From positions 133,459 through 193,297 of IMG/VR virus record IMGVR_UViG_3300019487_000018: a DNA stretch of 59,839 nt; one strand, 5' to 3'. This stretch comes from a virus. Shown here piece after piece: positions 24,393 to 31,974 of the stretch; the stretch's first letter is position 1, and every line of letters begins with the position of its first letter. The notes beneath the pieces were generated by a model. That model saw nothing but the letters and a program-made list of their open reading frames with translations, was not told the DNA's origin and made no database searches. Position numbers and translations under genes: made by a program.

Positions 24393-25439
24393 TTAACGTA
24401 AGCCCCCAGGAATTCCTTTTGAAACAACAGCCGTTGCTGACCAAGGATGAAGCGACTCAAGGTGTTCAGTAACAACACTGAAGTCTAGAATCTTACCCTC
24501 ATCGTACATCATGTCAAGGCCTTGATACAACAGACGTGATGCATCCTCTGTGAACAGAAGGTTTGATCCGTTAAGCTCAGCGAACGCTTGTTCATCACGC
24601 CGCTTACAGATTACAACAACTTCGGTTGGGACTTGACGACGAGCCACCTCTACAATATCTTCAATCCACACAACATGTTTGTCAGGATTAAACTGAACGG
24701 TGATTTTTCCGAGCGATCGTTGTGAGTGTCCGTTTGCAGCCTTACCGCGTTTGCGTGTTGCATGCTGCGCAAGTTCAAACGAACATGGACAGGTTGAGGA
24801 ATACAGATAGTCAACAGTCAGAAGGAATTTGTATGTGTCCCGTCCCGCTCTTAAATAAGGAGTATCCGTTACTTCTCTGTGCAATTGACCTTCCAATGTG
24901 CAGTCATAGAAAATGTATCCAAGCATCTTGTCATGGCTCAGTTCTACTCCTTCGACTGTCTTGAATGTACGACCTAACGTTTTCTCTTCGTCCGAGGCCT
25001 CGCGTCTAGTTCGGAGCGCTGGCTGCGTCCAAGGATATTTGAAACGCAACTTACAATACACGTGCTTCGATCCTTGCTTTTCTTGAAGTCTTTTAAGAAT
25101 CCCCTTCAAGCCGTCGAGTGAGAGATGATTTGCAATCTCTTCATGCATCAGGATTGGGAATCGAGACAGGTTTAATCCTTTGGCTTCTGGATTGTCCAGT
25201 GAACCATACAATGAAGCCTTTACATGTAGATTTTCGATGGAACCATCTCTGCGTAAAAACTTTATTGGAAGATCAACACCAGTCACACCAACCTTGTCCA
25301 GTCGTACCTTCGACCCTGGAATTACAGGATTGACTTGTGGGTCTGGAAGATCGCCGTCGTCTGGATAAAATTTGTCATCGTATGTAAAGTCCAAGTGCGG
25401 CATGTGTGCACTGTAATCGTTATTTCGGAATTTGGTCAT
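24393..25439 (-). CDS. folE2: GTP cyclohydrolase IB
   Basis: STCPCS, HSQRS, KRRDEQAFAE, FTEDASR and ESLH motifs. Confidence 0.9.
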   Translation of the reverse strand: MTKFRNNDYSAHMPHLDFTYDDKFYPDDGDLPDPQVNPVIPGSKVRLDKVGVTGVDLPIKFLRRDGSIENLHVKASLYGSLDNPEAKGLNLSRFPILMHEEIANHLSLDGLKGILKRLQEKQGSKHVYCKLRFKYPWTQPALRTRREASDEEKTLGRTFKTVEGVELSHDKMLGYIFYDCTLEGQLHREVTDTPYLRAGRDTYKFLLTVDYLYSSTCPCSFELAQHATRKRGKAANGHSQRSLGKITVQFNPDKHVVWIEDIVEVARRQVPTEVVVICKRRDEQAFAELNGSNLLFTEDASRLLYQGLDMMYDEGKILDFSVVTEHLESLHPWSATAVVSKGIPGGLR

Positions 25440-27154
25440 TATAACTCTCGTTGTTCATACGTTGCCAGTATTTGTGCATCTATCATTTCTGCACGCAAAT
25501 CTGCATCAAGTACATCAATGATATTCAGTCTGTTCGGCTGTGTCATCTGTGCGGTGAAATCATACATTGTGAGATCAACCATCCGTCCGTAGTGTTGGTT
25601 TACTGCAGCACGGTTGGGATCCATTACAATGGGGAATTTTCCACCTTTGACGTAGTATACAGCATCATAGCTTTGTTGAGCACGAAGACATTTCATGTAG
25701 TACTCGTTTAAGTACTGATCGAAACGGTTTTCTCGACCAAGCCAAATCACAGCATAAGCAAAGAGGTCAGCATATGTTCTTTCAGTGAACACAACACCTG
25801 TTCGTCTTTGATATTTGCGATCGTTACTTGATGTGTGTAGCACTCTTTCTGCGTCATGCTCATCTTTGTATTTTCGAGCAAGAATTTCGTTTTGGAATTT
25901 TACGACGAGATCGGGATCTTTAATGATGTCTTCAAGAGACATTCCCCACTCACTTTGAATTGACCGTGATGTTTTTCGTTCGATTATGCGATAGCCTTTG
26001 GCCTCAAGTCTTTTTAGAATTGTTGTGTTGTGCGTAACGATGTAATCGTCCGTGATGTATAAATGTTCAGGATCGTCGATTGCTATACACCACACCTCTT
26101 CTTTACCTTTGTAAGTAATGTCTGAAATCCTGCGTGTGAGCAGTAAACTTCCGTTTTTGTGTCCTTCAAAGTGAGAGGAACGACAACGATCTTTTTTTCT
26201 GGGGAGTGAAAATACACTAGAAGGATTTGGCAACTTTAGAGCAATTTCATATGCAATGAGACCACTGTGAAGCTTGTCTTTGTACTTGTACACAGGGTGT
26301 CTTTCACTAATCGTTGCTACTCCGCCGAGCGACCAAACAATGTCCTGTACGTCTCTTGCGAGTGCATAACTAGTTGTGGTAAACGTTGTAGAGGAGCCAT
26401 TACTACTCACAGTTCCGTCTGTGTCCATCAACCCTTGAAGTAATTTCAGCCTATCGTTTGGTGGTCCATTTTTATATGCATTAGGAACAAACTTTTCTGG
26501 CGACTTTTTCATCAGATCGTAGTTCTCAAATGCACGTATATACTTGTTATTATGTTTTCCCTCATGACCAAGTCGATACGAGATCGATGTACCTTGTTGA
26601 ACAAAGTTATAACCAGAATCGAGTAACTTACTGCACTCATGTAAAATATGTGTATCTGTTGTTGTAAGAAGTACAGATTCCGATGTTAAAGACCCGTCTC
26701 CAAGAAGACACCCCAACAAATAGGGAGGTATGTCATATTGATGATTATTGTCGTTCAAATATGGTGTAACCAGTGGTATTGACAGATTTGTCCCCCACTG
26801 CTTTCTTGTTTTTTGTCTCTGCATGTAAGCACTCATGCTGAGTGTGGTCATTACTTCTTGTTTCAATCGATAAAATGATTTGTTGTTTTTTTTCGTGTAT
26901 TGACCATACGAACACTTCCACAAATGATCTCCACACGCCTCTGTTTTCCCGCCATCGTGTGTGGTAATAATGTACACATCTTTCACACCTTGAGGGAAAA
27001 TTCCAATGATAGGTGCAGAATGACCATTTGGTGTAATCACTCGATCTTTACAGGTAAGCTCCCCTATACACTTCCATCCTGTTTCACATAGTACTTTCGA
27101 GTGTAGAGGTTGAGCCTTGCCTGACCCCTGTGAGCCAGAAATTGCCACCAGCAT
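25439..27154 (-). CDS. P-loop nucleotide kinase/NTPase interrupted by an intein
   Basis: The spliced product reads GSQGSGK|TT (Walker A). The C-extein has the kinase-like ERTYAD motif. Confidence 0.85.
   Translation of the reverse strand: MLVAISGSQGSGKAQPLHSKVLCETGWKCIGELTCKDRVITPNGHSAPIIGIFPQGVKDVYIITTHDGGKTEACGDHLWKCSYGQYTKKNNKSFYRLKQEVMTTLSMSAYMQRQKTRKQWGTNLSIPLVTPYLNDNNHQYDIPPYLLGCLLGDGSLTSESVLLTTTDTHILHECSKLLDSGYNFVQQGTSISYRLGHEGKHNNKYIRAFENYDLMKKSPEKFVPNAYKNGPPNDRLKLLQGLMDTDGTVSSNGSSTTFTTTSYALARDVQDIVWSLGGVATISERHPVYKYKDKLHSGLIAYEIALKLPNPSSVFSLPRKKDRCRSSHFEGHKNGSLLLTRRISDITYKGKEEVWCIAIDDPEHLYITDDYIVTHNTTILKRLEAKGYRIIERKTSRSIQSEWGMSLEDIIKDPDLVVKFQNEILARKYKDEHDAERVLHTSSNDRKYQRRTGVVFTERTYADLFAYAVIWLGRENRFDQYLNEYYMKCLRAQQSYDAVYYVKGGKFPIVMDPNRAAVNQHYGRMVDLTMYDFTAQMTQPNRLNIIDVLDADLRAEMIDAQILATYEQREL
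26027..27115 (-). mobile_element. Class-3 (Ala1, WCT) intein with LAGLIDADG homing endonuclease, 363 aa
   Basis: Starts AQPL; block B HLW; block F VWCIAI; ends VTHN|T. LAGLIDADG-like motifs LGCLLGDG and LQGLMDTDG. Confidence 0.9.
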
Positions 27155-27168
27155 TTACTCCCTCCATT

Positions 27169-27369
27169 TTATTGATTTTGTTTTAGTCGTCTTTCAAGGT
27201 CGCGAATCTCGTCGTGCATTGGTGAATTCTTTGCTTCCTTTGCCTGTCTACGAAGGTCTTCGAGGTATTCTTGTTCTGAAATGTTGATGTTGTAACCACA
27301 ATCAAAGCAGTACTCAGTCCAGTCTTGGACGTTCTGATGTGGGCAATCTAGGTATGAGTATTTTTCCAT
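27169..27369 (-). CDS. Small Cys-containing hypothetical protein
   Basis: AGGAG RBS; CPH...CFDCG. Confidence 0.6.
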   Translation of the reverse strand: MEKYSYLDCPHQNVQDWTEYCFDCGYNINISEQEYLEDLRRQAKEAKNSPMHDEIRDLERRLKQNQ

Positions 27370-27397
27370 TTTCTTCTCCTTAATAGAAGTAAATGGT

Positions 27398-27608
27398 AGA
27401 GGAGGAAAGTCGAAAAATCAACAAGTGCCTTTACAATCCTTCAAGATGGCAATTACATGCCCTTGACAACAAACAACGTTTGCTCTAGGCAGGGGTCAAC
27501 GAACAACCAACAAAGGTCTAAGTTTAAATCCCTGCAAACAATCGCAGTCCATGTTTTGTGATCTATTTTCTGCACCAGTTTGTGTGCAGCACGAAGTGTG
27601 AGTTCCAT
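27398..27608 (-). pseudogene. Deleted remnant of the 28912-29490 gene fused to the 3' part of its associated RNA
   Basis: 27608 onward encodes MELTLRAAHKLVQKI with a matching leader (CTCAACTCAAGGA). The 3' part resembles the 3' end of the 28672-28913 element. Confidence 0.7.
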
Positions 27609-27742
27609 GGATACTTTTCCTTGAGTTGAGGAGGTCTATACTACGGGGTAAAACCTAATCAGACAACTTTTTACAAACGTGAGCGTCTGAGATTGTTGAA
27701 GATCTGCTGTGTTGCTTCCCTCTTTGAAGGGACAAATTCCAT

Positions 27743-27819
27743 TGGTCGGAGTGGCAGGATTTGAACCCGCGTCTTCCACGTCCCAAACGTGGCCGTCTAC
27801 CAGACTGGCTTACACTCCG
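27743..27819 (-). tRNA. tRNA-Pro(UGG)
   Basis: Cloverleaf CGGAGTG...; anticodon arm CCACG-TTTGGGA-CGTGG; GGTTCAAATCC; encoded CCA. Confidence 0.93.
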
Positions 27820-27829
27820 ATGGTCAAGT

Positions 27830-27894
27830 AACAACCAAACGAGACCAATCGTCTGTAGGTGTTTTGCTAATGGATTTAGTCGTTACCGACTTTT
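27830..27894 (-). ncRNA. Partial copy of a candidate structured ncRNA
   Basis: Homologous to 30365-30430, with compensatory changes in its hairpins. Confidence 0.55.
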
Positions 27895-27900
27895 ATCCCT

Positions 27901-27939
27901 TTTGCCGCACCCGTGCGAGCCGGAAATAGCTACGAGCAT
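27901..27939 (-). pseudogene. 13-codon fragment of a second kinase allele (MLVAISGSHGCGK)
   Basis: 11 of 13 residues identical to the N-extein at 27154; differences mostly at third codon positions; RBS retained. Confidence 0.8.
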
Positions 27940-27948
27940 TGTTATCCT

Positions 27949-28659
27949 TTAGTCAATGTACGCGAAACGCGTCTCTAAGAGTGTTGGTCGTTGCACAACC
28001 GAGGTTAGAAATTTCAACGCTTCACCATTGCACATTTTATATCCGTATGATCCATATTTGACTGCCCGAGACAACGATGCGGCTGGAAACGTTAGTTTGT
28101 GAACTGCAAGTTTCTTATTGGCGATATCAAGCAATGTATAGTCCCCGACGATAATCGTCTCACCATCTGTTGCCAGCTGACAAATCGTGTAATCGAAACT
28201 ATCAAGTAAGTGTTCCACTGAGTCGTGGAAAAAATCACCGTGAATCAGCTGAATGTTGTACTTGTTTTTGTCTTAGGTGAAGTCAAAATTTGTAACGTGG
28301 CTAGTTTCGAGCGTTTTTGTAAACAATCGCTTGTTATCTTTTAGACGAAGAACAGGAAAAAGAACAGGAAAGATATTGTCCGCAATCTCATCCACACCTG
28401 ATCCTTCAATCATACGGTGTTGAAAGATTTCATGTTGGTCTGCATTTTTGAAGAAGATGTCGAAGTCAGTTTCACACGATTTTCCTTCAACAGCTTGCCG
28501 CAGACATCCGCCGCCAAGCCAAGGACCATTCTCCAACGAAAATTCAACAGCTGTTTGGCGTTGCAAACTACCAAGCAGATGCTCGATATGTGCAACGATG
28601 CTGGTTACCTTGTTTGGATGTAAGTGTTGAATTAGTTCGTATAGTGGATATTTGATCAT
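27949..28659 (-). pseudogene. Nucleotidyltransferase (CCA/poly(A) polymerase head-like) with one in-frame TAA
   Basis: LGGGCLR...DFDIFF, then in the same frame IQLI...SFDYTICQ. TAA at 28273-28275. Confidence 0.75.
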
Positions 28660-28671
28660 ACGAAAATCATA

Positions 28672-28913
28672 GAGGAGCGGAGTAAAAAGTTCAACAGAAC
28701 CGTGACAATCCCTCAATCCTTCAACCAGCAATACGGTCTTGCGAGCCCAATCCTTCAACCAGCAAAATAGGGTTAATTGTATGGCTCGCCTTCAATGACC
28801 AATCCATCAGCTGTATGAGGTTTAGACCTCGATCTTACGCTGAACATCTCACCAGCAAGCTGGTGAGATGACGTTGTAAGGTGGTTTGTCTCCCTTCTTA
28901 CTCGCGCCGCCTC
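28672..28913 (-). ncRNA. Candidate ~240-nt structured RNA downstream of the coiled-coil gene
   Basis: 5' GAGG..GAGTAAGAAG pairs with 3' CTTTTTACTC..CCTC; perfect hairpin CATCTCACCAG/CTGGTGAGATG; 18-nt direct repeat at 28714-28731 and 28748-28765. Confidence 0.6.
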
Positions 28914-29490
28914 AAATCAGCTTCTCGTCCGACAGAACAATAACGTGAGTCTGTGGTAGCACGAGAGTGTTCGCAAGATTCTTGTGAAGAAGCGCATCTT
29001 CGATGGTTTCTGCTTGGCGACGGTATCCAGCAATCTCATGCTCCATACGTTCACGATTGCTGATGAGCGAGAAGTTCACGACATCAGCACGATAGCTCTC
29101 ACCAGCGGCTTCTTGGGCGCGCGCGATTTGACGTTGAAGGGCTTCTGGTGTTGACACATACTGCTCACGAAGGACAGACACGAGCCGTCCCAATAGCTGA
29201 GCACGATCAACAACATCTTTGCGTTCTGAGACAAGTTGGTTGATCCCTTCGCGCTCATTGATTGCGCGAATGGTGTCGCGAATAAACGTGCGGATAGTCA
29301 TCAGATCTTCAACGCGAGCGATCTTGTCTTCGAATTCTTGCATCCGATCTTGGTACAGGTGTTCGACAACGTCGCTATCATTATCAACGTCAAACACGTT
29401 GATCGTAGCGATTGGGTTGATTTGGATTGCGTGGATTTGTTGGGTGATCTTGTCAACCAACTTGTGTGCAGCACGGAGGGTCAGTTCCAT
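28912..29490 (-). CDS. Coiled-coil protein, possibly a distant DIP1984/DUF6847-like member
   Basis: AGGAG RBS; helical heptads with the pattern LxxAxKL...IRxxIxxxNxxxGI...IEDxLxxxN. Family link is from memory of the pattern only. Confidence 0.7.
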   Translation of the reverse strand: MELTLRAAHKLVDKITQQIHAIQINPIATINVFDVDNDSDVVEHLYQDRMQEFEDKIARVEDLMTIRTFIRDTIRAINEREGINQLVSERKDVVDRAQLLGRLVSVLREQYVSTPEALQRQIARAQEAAGESYRADVVNFSLISNRERMEHEIAGYRRQAETIEDALLHKNLANTLVLPQTHVIVLSDEKLI

Positions 29491-29531
29491 GAAATGTTCT
29501 CCTTGAGTTGAGGGATTGTATCCTACAAGGG

Positions 29532-29798
29532 TCAATGAAGTTCGACAACAGCGTATCGAGTTTTTTCAAGCAACTCGTCAAACGCGGCGTTAACAGTAGT
29601 GCTGTCTAGACGGAAACCAGCTCCTTCTTGTGGTCGTCCGTCATCGTCACAAGGCACACAATACATGCCGTTTCGACCTTCCATTACTGTAAAGCCAAAC
29701 AATGCAATCAGGCGCTTTTTTGCTGTCAACAGACAATCGACGTTGTCAAGGACGAGTTGGTCCTCTTCAAAATCAAGGTTCGTTGCTAGGTACTTCAT
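29532..29798 (-). CDS. Hypothetical protein
   Basis: 88-aa ORF in the minus-strand run. Confidence 0.55.
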   Translation of the reverse strand: MKYLATNLDFEEDQLVLDNVDCLLTAKKRLIALFGFTVMEGRNGMYCVPCDDDGRPQEGAGFRLDSTTVNAAFDELLEKTRYAVVELH

Positions 29799-29819
29799 CG
29801 TGTGTTTTCTTCGTATCGC

Positions 29820-30044
29820 TCACGAAGCGTTGGTTGGTCCATTATCTTCTCGAATAATTGTTAGAGCCTGCGATTTCTGAAGATCAGGCAGAAGACCTTC
29901 AGACACTGTTAGGCGCCACGTTCCGTCGGCAAGTGGGTCGAAGTGGAGAAATTCATTCTGGATCTTTAGAATCGTAAACCTTGAGATCTCTATTGTACGA
30001 CCTGTTCCTTCAAAACGAAACGTTCGACGAACGTTATTGGCCAT
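29820..30044 (-). CDS. Hypothetical protein
   Basis: ORF starting MANNVRRTF, in the minus-strand run. Confidence 0.5.
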   Translation of the reverse strand: MANNVRRTFRFEGTGRTIEISRFTILKIQNEFLHFDPLADGTWRLTVSEGLLPDLQKSQALTIIREDNGPTNAS

Positions 30045-30179
30045 ACTTAAGTACCACACGGCACTTCGAACAAATGAAGCACCACATCTTCTTGATTAGT
30101 TCTCCAACGTGGCCACATTGGTGGCATTTGACCGTGTTTTGATCTTGCGTCACCATTTGACGCCTCTTTTGCATGAATA

Positions 30180-30256
30180 TGGTCGGCGATGGAGGATTTG
30201 AACCTCCGGCCTCTTGCTCCCAAAGCAAGCAGTCTACCAGGCTGACCTAATCGCCG
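30180..30256 (-). tRNA. tRNA-Pro(UGG)
   Basis: CGGCGAT acceptor; anticodon arm CTTGC-TTTGGGA-GCAAG; GGTTCAAATCC; CCA. Confidence 0.93.
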
Positions 30257-30261
30257 AAACG

Positions 30262-30356
30262 TTCTTGAAATTCACAGCGTGTACTGCAGCGGCTTAGGCT
30301 CCCAATCGTAGCGATCTACTTGTGCACTTTCGATCTACCTTCGCTTGTTTCAAGAG
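30262..30356 (-). ncRNA. Candidate ~95-nt structured RNA between the tRNAs
   Basis: Terminal inverted repeat TCTTGAAA/TTTCAAGA with inner AGCG/CGCT; no credible ORF. Confidence 0.35.
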
Positions 30357-30360
30357 TTTC

Positions 30361-30484
30361 AAACAACAACCAAATCAGGATCAATGATTTGTGGACGTTT
30401 TGCTTACGGATATAGCCGTTACCGACTTTTTCGTCCGTTCGCTAAGGACGTGTCTTACTTCACCCTAGGAGGTCCATTGTTGTT
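30361..30484 (-). ncRNA. Candidate ~125-nt structured RNA directly 3' of tRNA-Ala
   Basis: Closing stem AACAACAA/TTGTTGTT; TGGAC/GTCCA; CGTCC/GGACG; AGTCG-GTAA-CGGCT; CAAATCA/TGATTTG. Confidence 0.6.
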
Positions 30485-31584: not shown

Positions 31585-31974
31585 TTAGCATTCAACTACA
31601 GCACCACCTTCACCGTCCTCGTTTACTTCACACGTATCAAGTTTGAACTGTTTCAACAGTTCAGTGGCAAGCATTTCACAGCTCTGGGAGCCAAACAGCA
31701 AACACTGGTACTCTTTCGAAAAATATCTCTTATGTAAAAACTTCTTCATTTGATGTGCCAATTTGATAAATTCAATGTCCCTATCATTATGATAAACGGA
31801 TTTTGTTGCTATTACAAAGAACTGATGTCTGTGCAAGTTCTTCAAATACATTACTTCATCAATATCGCAGTTTGTCCAGCAATGAAGTCCTTCTACCTGA
31901 AAGCGAACTATAATGCGAGTACTCAATGTCGTTCTATTTCTTACAAAAGCAGTTTGATTCAAATTTTGTTTCAT
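31585..31974 (-). CDS. Putative T-fold QueD/6-pyruvoyl-tetrahydropterin synthase-like protein
   Basis: H...HRH metal-ligand pattern, DRDIEF, SCEMLA and VNEDGEGGA. Confidence 0.55.
   Translation of the reverse strand: MKQNLNQTAFVRNRTTLSTRIIVRFQVEGLHCWTNCDIDEVMYLKNLHRHQFFVIATKSVYHNDRDIEFIKLAHQMKKFLHKRYFSKEYQCLLFGSQSCEMLATELLKQFKLDTCEVNEDGEGGAVVEC

Follow-up and report, generated by a model that had tools for sequence, protein, structure and literature searches.

A conserved structured RNA encoded directly behind the gene of an uncharacterised helical protein in mainly large phages

The window analysed here is a 59,839-nt stretch of DNA forming the end of a 193-kb IMG/VR viral record (IMGVR_UViG_3300019487_000018), whose CheckV completeness of about 56% at that length marks the source as a large phage. 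On its minus strand, a gene for a 192-aa helical protein (P0001) is followed by about 240 nt that a sequence-only reading had taken for the RNA of a new ribonucleoprotein system, in which an oligomeric protein would bind periodic UUG motifs of its cognate RNA. This raises the questions of whether the RNA is genuine, to which gene it belongs and what the two might do together. The results established that the structured RNA is real and conserved, that it corresponds to the sense strand and has no Rfam counterpart, and that it is tied to a viral protein family that is itself uncharacterised; the protein and its attached RNA probably work together. Logan contigs from only two sequencing runs, both of cave-metagenome DNA and possibly the source of the window, contain the same locus sequence; no RNA run is listed with it.

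A structured RNA behind the gene

The minus-strand RNA folded with an energy of -91.1 kcal/mol, compared with -71.8 +/- 4.1 kcal/mol for 200 dinucleotide shuffles (z -4.8), none of which folded as well (0/200). Its ends are paired and its architecture is multi-branched. The gene and the parts of the RNA are the following, where R1 is the covariance model (CM) of the close clade of relatives:

28912..29490, minus strand: gene of the 192-aa helical protein P0001, an open reading frame (ORF) whose protein begins MELTLRAAHKLV
28672..28913, minus strand: structured RNA of ~240 nt, from the P1 5' arm to the P1 3' arm (fold; 175.8 bits with CM R1; covariation in P1/P2)
28913-28894 with 28689-28672, minus strand: closing helix P1, GAGG.GGCG.GAGUAAGAAG with CUUUUUACUCCGCUCCUC (fold)
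28883..28913, minus strand: 5' arms of P1 (28913-28894, overlapping the stop codon) and P2 (GACAAACC, 28890-28883) (fold, covariation)
28672..28703, minus strand: 3' arms of P2 (GGUUCUGUU) and P1 (CUUUUUACUCCGCUCCUC) (fold, covariation)
28845-28856 / 28859-28870, minus strand: perfect hairpin with 12-nt arms, 100% complementary, within the variable 5' half
28735..28800, minus strand: core domain P3-internal loop-P4-P5 (single-sequence folds)
28800-28797 with 28738-28735, minus strand: P3 of the core, GGUC with GACC
between P3 and P4, minus strand: internal loop of the core, carrying AUUGAAG
28789-28783 with 28747-28741, minus strand: P4 of the core, GCGAGCC with GGCUCGC
within the core, minus strand: P5, AACC/GGUU, with a UUG-rich loop
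28714-28731 and 28748-28765, minus strand: exact 18-nt repeat in two copies, TTGCTGGTTGAAGGATTG / UUGCUGGUUGAAGGAUUG, 34 nt apart, with three UUG units per copy at 7-8 nt spacing

The end pairing, the hairpin (given by the sequence-only reading as 11 bp, here with 12-nt arms), the GCGAGCC/GGCUCGC stem and the two exact repeats were all found on the minus strand where that reading had placed them. The closing helix begins so early that two letters of the stop codon TGA (28914-28912), its G and A, are already paired within it. A search of 27300-29600 against Rfam 15 with permissive filters returned chance-level microRNA and long non-coding RNA matches only, far below threshold.

A 161-aa ORF that starts inside the element, at TTG 28758 (a 269-aa gene in one assembly), was also considered as coding. 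It was rejected because homologs align only from ATG 28659 (MIKYPLYELIQHLHPNK vs MFKYSLSDLVNHLHPNK in the homolog alignment starting there); the 34-nt spacing of the repeats is also out of frame.

To follow the element in relatives, loci were sampled over many protein distances, down to about 25-30% identity. In nearly all of the sampled lineages the gene was followed by 200-430 nt free of ORFs, irrespective of the next gene. All seven close homologs shared one outline. P1 begins 0-12 nt past the stop codon and is followed by P2, GA(C/U)(A/G)G(A/G) with (U/C)(C/U)(U/C)GUU; after one to three variable hairpins come the core helix P3, a loop with UUGU or UUGA, P4 and P5 with its UUG-rich loop, and a UUG-rich joining strand leads back to P2/P1. 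Within this clade, the P2/P1 3' arms (28672..28703) form the best-conserved sequence block. The three closest homologs, folded with shuffle controls, gave z-scores of -2.3 to -7.1.

The closing helices covaried. In a nine-copy CM alignment, P1/P2 positions were 83% paired and 11 of the 18 pairs had changed on both sides; 0/500 shuffles reached the observed covariation score, and slid controls were all lower. About 37 of roughly 130 paired cells in P1/P2 (~28%) were G-U, a pair that becomes an A-C mismatch on the other strand, so that the conserved molecule is a sense-strand RNA rather than an opposite-strand RNA or a DNA cruciform. The inner helices P3, P4 and P5 appeared in each of 8 close copies folded singly, with compensatory changes: P3 was GGUC/GACC, or GGCU/AGCC in the relative L017, and P4 occurred as GCGAGCC, GCAGGC, GAUGAG, GUGAGC, GUGCAGC and GCAGGG, each with its complement. 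A MAFFT alignment submitted to RNAalifold recovered P1/P2 and nothing else, and a MAFFT-seeded CM mis-registered the inner helices. The homologs' downstream regions therefore hold the conserved structure that the sequence-only reading had expected of them, as covariation in P1/P2 and as a recurrent P3-P4-P5.

A second covariance model, R2, built from four distant-clade sequences, reproduced this layout: P1 and a hairpin are followed by P3, a UUGUC-containing loop, P4 and a further loop carrying UUUGUU.AUUGU. It found an unseeded fifth member after its gene (L033, 179 bits), where the element lies immediately behind a partial gene. Weak cross-clade matches of R2 (9-13 bits) at L006, L029 and L031 all fell on the P3-P4 core and on the correct strand. 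These sequence matches are suggestive of homology between the R1- and R2-clade RNAs.

The UUG units were likewise conserved, with a preference for 7-8 nt spacing. The window copy holds 11 UUG vs 7.3 +/- 1.9 expected from dinucleotide shuffles (z 1.9), and close relatives reached up to z 3.8; on the strand level, TTG occurred 11-15 times vs 1-4 for CAA. Start-to-start, 7 nt was the commonest spacing (28 cases), followed by 3 (18), 8 (13) and 4 (11). The exact 18-nt repeat is not conserved among homologs and the heptad pattern is, the window's duplication being one instance of it (UUGCUGG-UUGAAGGA-UUG); heptad runs recur in separate clades as UUGUUGG-UUGUUGA-UUGU and GUUGAUA-GUUGAUA-GUUGACU. A role as CsrA sponge via GGA motifs was considered as well and rejected, as GGAUUG is not conserved in L013 and L010.

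Linkage of the RNA to the upstream gene

In the close clade (the window, L013, L006, L010, L011, L016 and L017; 30-47% protein identity), an ORF-free stretch of 233-277 nt followed the gene in every case. The gene after the element varied: three lineages have a Gad2-like nucleotidyltransferase there, three go straight on to the AAA_28 kinase, and the remaining one has an unrelated 302-aa protein. In the distant "NLRKARKLE" clade, an ORF-free gap of at least 200 nt, mostly 200-430 nt, was present in 9 of the 11 contigs examined (L022, L024-L029, L031 and L032), and the next features were ClpS-like, PTH2-like and HNH-like genes and tRNA-like sequence, all labelled from reading the sequences. By eye, tRNA-like sequences with GGTTCGATTCC-type T arms lie downstream of the RNA element at about 2360-2440 of L028 and about 2380-2420 of L031.

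The pair also occurs in a cultured phage. In Vibrio phage 2.275.O (2.275.O._10N.286.54.E11; 349 kb; host Vibrio cyclitrophicus), the gene stands within a tRNA cluster and is followed by a 190-nt end-paired, UUGU-rich RNA (z -4.3), and in a still more distant clade L036 carries an end-paired RNA with GUUGAUA-GUUGAUA-GUUGACU (z -3.9). The RNAs of Vibrio phage 2.275.O and L025 are each followed by a hairpin and U tract resembling an intrinsic terminator, which fits the RNA as the 3' part of the upstream transcript.

Within genomes the association was strict. When four viral records of 26-193 kb were scanned with the R1 covariance model and the protein profile, each gave one match per module, always adjacent, and the sole extra matches came from a decayed copy in the window's own genome. 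The gene-RNA pair is found mostly in large phages, and within genomes the RNA is tied one-to-one to the protein gene; that gene and RNA travel together, as had been claimed, held across many phage lineages. Distant nucleotidyltransferase homologs occur without the protein gene and also, at least in the case of L007 (which a small gene abuts), without the RNA, so that the RNA goes with the upstream gene. An assignment of the RNA to the downstream nucleotidyltransferase or to kinase/FolE2, for instance as a riboswitch, was rejected: the downstream gene varies and the upstream one is constant.

A blastn search of the locus against the phage collection retrieved tRNA-Pro genes only, and an exact-pattern scan of viral contigs for the conserved 3' block gave no match beyond the window's own genome.

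The decayed copy joins the two ends of the module:

27367..27628, minus strand: decayed second copy (remnant), a gene start fused to the 3' ~160 nt of the RNA

It keeps ~60 nt of the upstream region and the first ~22 codons, with profile residues 1-22 at 27543-27608, and RNA profile positions ~100-260 at 27380-27541 (nhmmer E 2e-11; CM 37 bits). These matches bear out the description, made from the sequence alone, of a remnant with the protein's first codons and a diverged RNA end. Its P4 was kept by compensatory change (GCAGGG/CCCUGC). Since the remnant holds both the gene start and the RNA end, gene and RNA were copied as one unit. The idea of a joint unit therefore stood, and the remnant gives no evidence of mobility: a diverged tandem duplication followed by internal deletion explains the sequence better, because tRNA-Pro(UGG) is duplicated too and a kinase stub (MLVAISGSHGCGK) is left.

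The stretch 25439-30484 reads as a diverged tandem-duplicated block of small RNA, tRNA-Pro(UGG), protein gene plus RNA, and AAA_28 kinase. One kinase copy in it is a 13-codon stub (about 27900-27940, MLVAISGSHGCGK) and the other carries a LAGLIDADG intein.

The protein, the putative promoter and the competing explanations

P0001 is preceded by a Shine-Dalgarno sequence, AAGGAGA, 8 nt ahead of its ATG. A word-indexed search with it found a single relative, at 46% identity, a scan for related loci with this one protein found none, and an exhaustive profile search collected 363 cluster representatives of the family (E<=1e-3), essentially all full-length at 184-210 aa, with a shared N-terminal motif (T/S/N)LR(Q/K)A(H/R)KL. 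No Pfam or NCBIfam assignment and no PDB sequence match was obtained, including a family-profile search of PDB; the only profile matched was phrog_25230 (function unknown). Neither P0001 nor P0014 matched anything in the phage collection by tblastn, and no fused or longer forms of the protein were found, which is weak evidence. Searches of the literature on DIP1984, DUF6847, phage UUG-repeat RNAs and jumbo-phage structured RNAs turned up no description of this module. The sequence-only reading had recognised no described system here, and across Rfam, Pfam, NCBIfam, PDB sequences and the literature no described RNA or protein family was matched.

The AlphaFold model of P0001 (pLDDT 95.7, pTM 0.79) is a bundle of helices with short strands at both termini. 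Prediction as a homodimer gave an ipSAE of 0.66 (best control, 0.01); the runs shared at least 96% of contacts, and the partner pLDDT was at least 88. In calibration, this mark was reached by 20 of 30 proteins solved as pairs and by 1 of 23 solved as single chains. The family protein is thus probably a homodimer, judging from these models. The oligomeric nature that had been proposed gains from this prediction of a dimer. The best-conserved residues are Arg, Lys and Asn (R6, K10, R71, N78, R90 and N171); among the listed dimer contacts R71 is included, and R6 and K10 are absent.

Close structural neighbours are uncharacterised proteins of Caulobacter phage CcrColossus, Erwinia phage pEa_SNUABM_47 and Vibrio phage Vp_R1, and structural matches also came from the giant viruses Catovirus CTV1 and Yasminevirus. 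The top PDB structure match was 3KDQ, an uncharacterised Corynebacterium diphtheriae protein that we take to be DIP1984; its similarity to P0001 is weak (Foldseek E 0.15, probability 0.95, TM 0.42-0.54), and by VIA (Z 9.7, root-mean-square deviation 6.6 A, 142 residues aligned) it lies within the range of unrelated helical bundles. The nearest named Atlas cluster, of 149 aa and mostly viral, has DUF6847 on 19% of its members (score 0.91, TM 0.54-0.66). The NF038048/PF20935 (DIP1984/DUF6847) hidden Markov models gave no match to P0001, and 1 of 60 family members was reached at E 0.0046-0.0047, below cutoffs. Of the suggested likeness to DIP1984, 3KDQ as best PDB match is what remained; the match itself was weak (Z 9.7, TM 0.42-0.54) and NF038048/PF20935 were not matched.

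The 3' end of the element carries a further signal, next to the downstream gene:

28666..28694, minus strand: sigma-70-like promoter TTGAAC-17 nt-TATGAT, a consensus match whose spacer is the P1 3' arm
27949..28659, minus strand: Gad2-like nucleotidyltransferase, its start set by homolog alignment

This was the only minus-strand promoter-like site within 2.4 kb. From the end of its -10 hexamer to ATG 28659 there are 6 nt and the nucleotidyltransferase gene has no Shine-Dalgarno sequence, so a leaderless downstream mRNA is possible. The arrangement is also seen in L013 (TTGAAC-17-TATAAT-6-ATG) and L010, with 5-6 nt from the -10 box to the ATG; in L006, L017 and the remnant, the promoter-like site is followed by a leader carrying a Shine-Dalgarno sequence. 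In the L006 leader, that sequence is locked inside a perfect 9-bp hairpin. Altogether, the site overlaps the 3' arm in 6 of the 9 close copies and is absent from L011, L016 and the distant clades, all of which retain the structure. The sequence thus suggests that the RNA gene of the close clade contains a promoter that serves the downstream gene; this does not account for the whole element.

An in-frame TAA at 28273-28275 (minus strand) interrupts the nucleotidyltransferase, where the otherwise identical Logan contig L004 has GAA; the gene may be a pseudogene, the population may be polymorphic for the nonsense codon, or the assembly may be in error. PF26128 (Gad2) is listed for P0003-P0008 in precomputed tables, a hmmscan of P0003 against the local Pfam copy gave no match, and the C-terminal nucleotidyltransferase piece matches phrog_1614 (nucleotidyltransferase).

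Taken together, the leading explanation, which we hold with a confidence just short of even, is a new phage module of cognate protein and RNA, either a ribonucleoprotein or a 3'-UTR (untranslated region) operator, with UUG heptads as putative binding units. It is favoured because only a functional tie to the upstream gene explains a linkage so strict, ancient and independent of neighbours. The module would consist of the ~190-aa helical protein, a probable homodimer, and the ~240-nt RNA encoded just 3' of it on the same strand. The RNA would be made as the 3' end of the gene's own transcript, presumed because most lineages leave no room for a separate promoter. The RNA is closed by the long purine/pyrimidine helix P1/P2, whose start lies at the stop codon or no more than a few nt from it, and carries single-stranded clusters of UUG units, 7-8 nt apart, beside the variable 5' hairpins and the P3-P4-P5 core. 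As the protein's own ligand, the RNA may be bound at these clusters while the protein is made from the same mRNA, and the outcome would be either a stable ribonucleoprotein with its site of action elsewhere, or feedback through the 3' UTR as an operator.

The position of the module in auxiliary gene islands related to tRNA and translation may indicate that its target belongs to host translation or tRNA biology. A more specific version, a new ribonucleoprotein class in which a DUF6847-related dimer is loaded in cis on UUG heptads and acts on host translation or tRNA, for example as a decoy against defence enzymes that target tRNAs or anticodons, would explain the location in tRNA/ClpS/PTH2/nucleotidyltransferase islands of large phages, and we consider it doubtful.

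Several observations weigh against a cognate protein-RNA module. The family is not basic (median pI 6.2; P0001 pI 5.3), and profile and structure searches recognised no RNA-binding domain or fold in it. The Pseudomonas phage PA5oct homolog gp304 (L034, NC_071039.1 107445-108008) is followed by a 71-nt unstructured gap, and the P0070 clade appears, by gene call only, to have a gene 10 nt downstream; the protein can therefore exist without the RNA. In L021, gene and RNA are ~260 nt apart. On the RNA side, the inner-helix covariation comes from single-sequence folds and is poorly registered on the CM alignment (45-60% paired), and the conserved 3' block is in part explicable as promoter, one UUG (that of TTGAAC) doubling as the -35 box. 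In its record, PA5oct gp304 is flagged ESI-MS/MS (electrospray ionisation tandem mass spectrometry), i.e., it was detected in virion preparations.

The lack of RNA-binding features would be expected if the RNA were a cis-acting 3'-UTR or intercistronic element independent of the protein, for instance a site processed by RNase III or otherwise, a stabiliser of the 3' end, a retroregulator of the upstream mRNA or an insulator of upstream transcription from the embedded promoter. The P1/P2 duplex of ~20 bp that starts at the stop codon, and would therefore be opened by terminating ribosomes, agrees with such a role, as do the sigma-70-like promoter overlapping the 3' arm in 6/9 close copies and the terminator-like hairpins after the element in two lineages. 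However, a stabiliser or processing site needs neither 240 nt, nor a P3-P4-P5 core, nor conserved single-stranded UUG heptads, and this explanation, which we find unlikely, leaves unaccounted for why the element follows only the P0001 family across very different phages and neighbours.

A trans-acting small RNA or decoy that merely shares the transcription unit, serving as a sponge for a host RNA-binding factor, or as an anticodon-loop mimic that draws off tRNA-targeting enzymes or nucleases of the host, while the protein has a separate role, appears rather improbable. It would suit the place of the module among tRNA and tRNA- or translation-related auxiliary genes in several lineages, the many loop units UUGU(C/U/A), which presumably resemble U33-G34-U35-N36 of Asp/Asn/Tyr/His anticodon loops, and the PA5oct protein homolog, which lacks the RNA and was detected by mass spectrometry in virions. 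The window copy, however, has mostly UUGA/UUGC/UUGG rather than UGU, the shared motif being UUG only; CsrA-type GGA motifs are not conserved across clades, and the strict one-to-one adjacency speaks for a functional tie to the protein.

We give very little credence to a feature acting at the DNA level (-35-like TTG boxes, iterons, an origin or a packaging site). TTG(A/T)nn boxes do resemble -35 hexamers, one of them forming a good promoter with TATGAT, and the opposite strand alone also folds well (z -4.2), but the frequent G-U pairs of the covarying helices would turn into mismatches in an opposite-strand RNA or a cruciform, the P1 arms lie ~200 nt apart, TTG and CAA are strongly asymmetric, and the promoter-like site is missing from L011, L016 and the distant clades despite their structure. 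A type III toxin-antitoxin-like pair of repeat RNA antitoxin and protein toxin (as in ToxIN, CptIN and TenpIN), suggested by the two exact 18-nt direct repeats 34 nt apart beside a protein gene, is close to refuted: the inter-repeat sequence is unrepeated and the exact repeats are not kept in homologs, the RNA lies downstream of the gene instead of upstream with an intervening terminator, the protein is a helical bundle unlike endoribonuclease toxins, and PADLOC gave no credible match (best E 0.004, 14 bits, 45 residues).

Genomic setting and comparison with known systems

The genes surrounding the locus lie on the minus strand throughout, in the following order, 5' to 3':

minus strand: tRNA-Ala, tRNA-Pro(UGG), two small ORFs, the 192-aa gene, the ~240-nt RNA
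continued, minus strand: nucleotidyltransferase, AAA_28 kinase stub (13 codons), second tRNA-Pro(UGG), remnant
continued, minus strand: 66-aa ORF, intein-containing AAA_28 kinase, FolE2

tRNAs were the sole Rfam families at threshold in the whole window (n=3). Beside the tRNA-Pro copies, at window 27822-27894 and 30361-30484 (minus strand), a short GGTCAAGTAACAACCAA-like sequence forms a direct repeat, and a hairpin resembling a terminator (27836-27855) adjoins a tRNA-Pro copy. The FolE2-type GTP cyclohydrolase occupies window 24393-25439 (minus strand; PF02649, E 1e-50), and the ORF at 31585-31974 (minus strand) looks QueD-like by eye, from sequence reading alone; their co-occurrence in the window would point to a pathway for 7-deazaguanine. 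Kinase and FolE2 lie immediately downstream of the protein-RNA module in the close clade.

In large phages, numerous genes and intergenic regions lack a known function, and characterised examples of phage-encoded structured RNAs are few. The present analysis provides a candidate RNA family new to Rfam, a secondary-structure model, a candidate UUG recognition motif and a cultured carrier, Vibrio phage 2.275.O. If the pair does form a ribonucleoprotein, both the RNA-binding fold and the type of phage RNA-protein particle would be new, and a DUF-level phage protein superfamily with giant-virus structural look-alikes would gain a function; if the RNA acts in cis only, it would stand out as a 3'-UTR element of uncommon complexity with a promoter inside it.

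Among known systems, the TRAP/trp leader of Bacillus had been suggested as a loose analogue. In TRAP (MtrB), 11 small beta-sandwich subunits form a ring that recognises 9-11 (G/U)AG triplets with 2-3 nt between them. Regularly spaced short triplets in single-stranded RNA and a candidate partner predicted to self-associate are common to both. In contrast to TRAP, the protein here is a ~190-aa all-helical bundle for which a dimer is the only form modelled, with no sequence or fold relationship, and the UUG units are 4-5 nt apart (modal 7 nt start-to-start), 3-4 per cluster, inside a large folded RNA. The analogy is therefore loose and fails in each feature tested, namely subunit fold, triplet type and triplet spacing.

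The weak structural match that links P0001 to DIP1984/DUF6847 (PF20935, NF038048; 3KDQ), its best PDB structure match and nearest named Atlas cluster, leads to a family whose models P0001 does not match and which is itself without known function.

A structured RNA encoded beside one protein family and co-inherited with it is also found in Ro60 with Y RNA, in OLE RNA with OapA/B/C and in the omega RNA of IscB/TnpB, and Y RNAs are likewise closed by 5'-3' end pairing. Unlike in those systems, to which there is neither RNA (Rfam) nor protein homology, the partner here is small and helical, without a nuclease or known RNA-binding domain.

Finally, the lambda sib site, a retroregulator of int mRNA, and the T7 intergenic RNase III sites resemble the element in lying just 3' of a gene and in having a long closing duplex that could be processed. 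Those sites are single hairpins of ~60-100 nt that lack both a conserved core of several helices and repeats of a single-stranded motif, whereas the RNA behind the P0001 gene combines the two.

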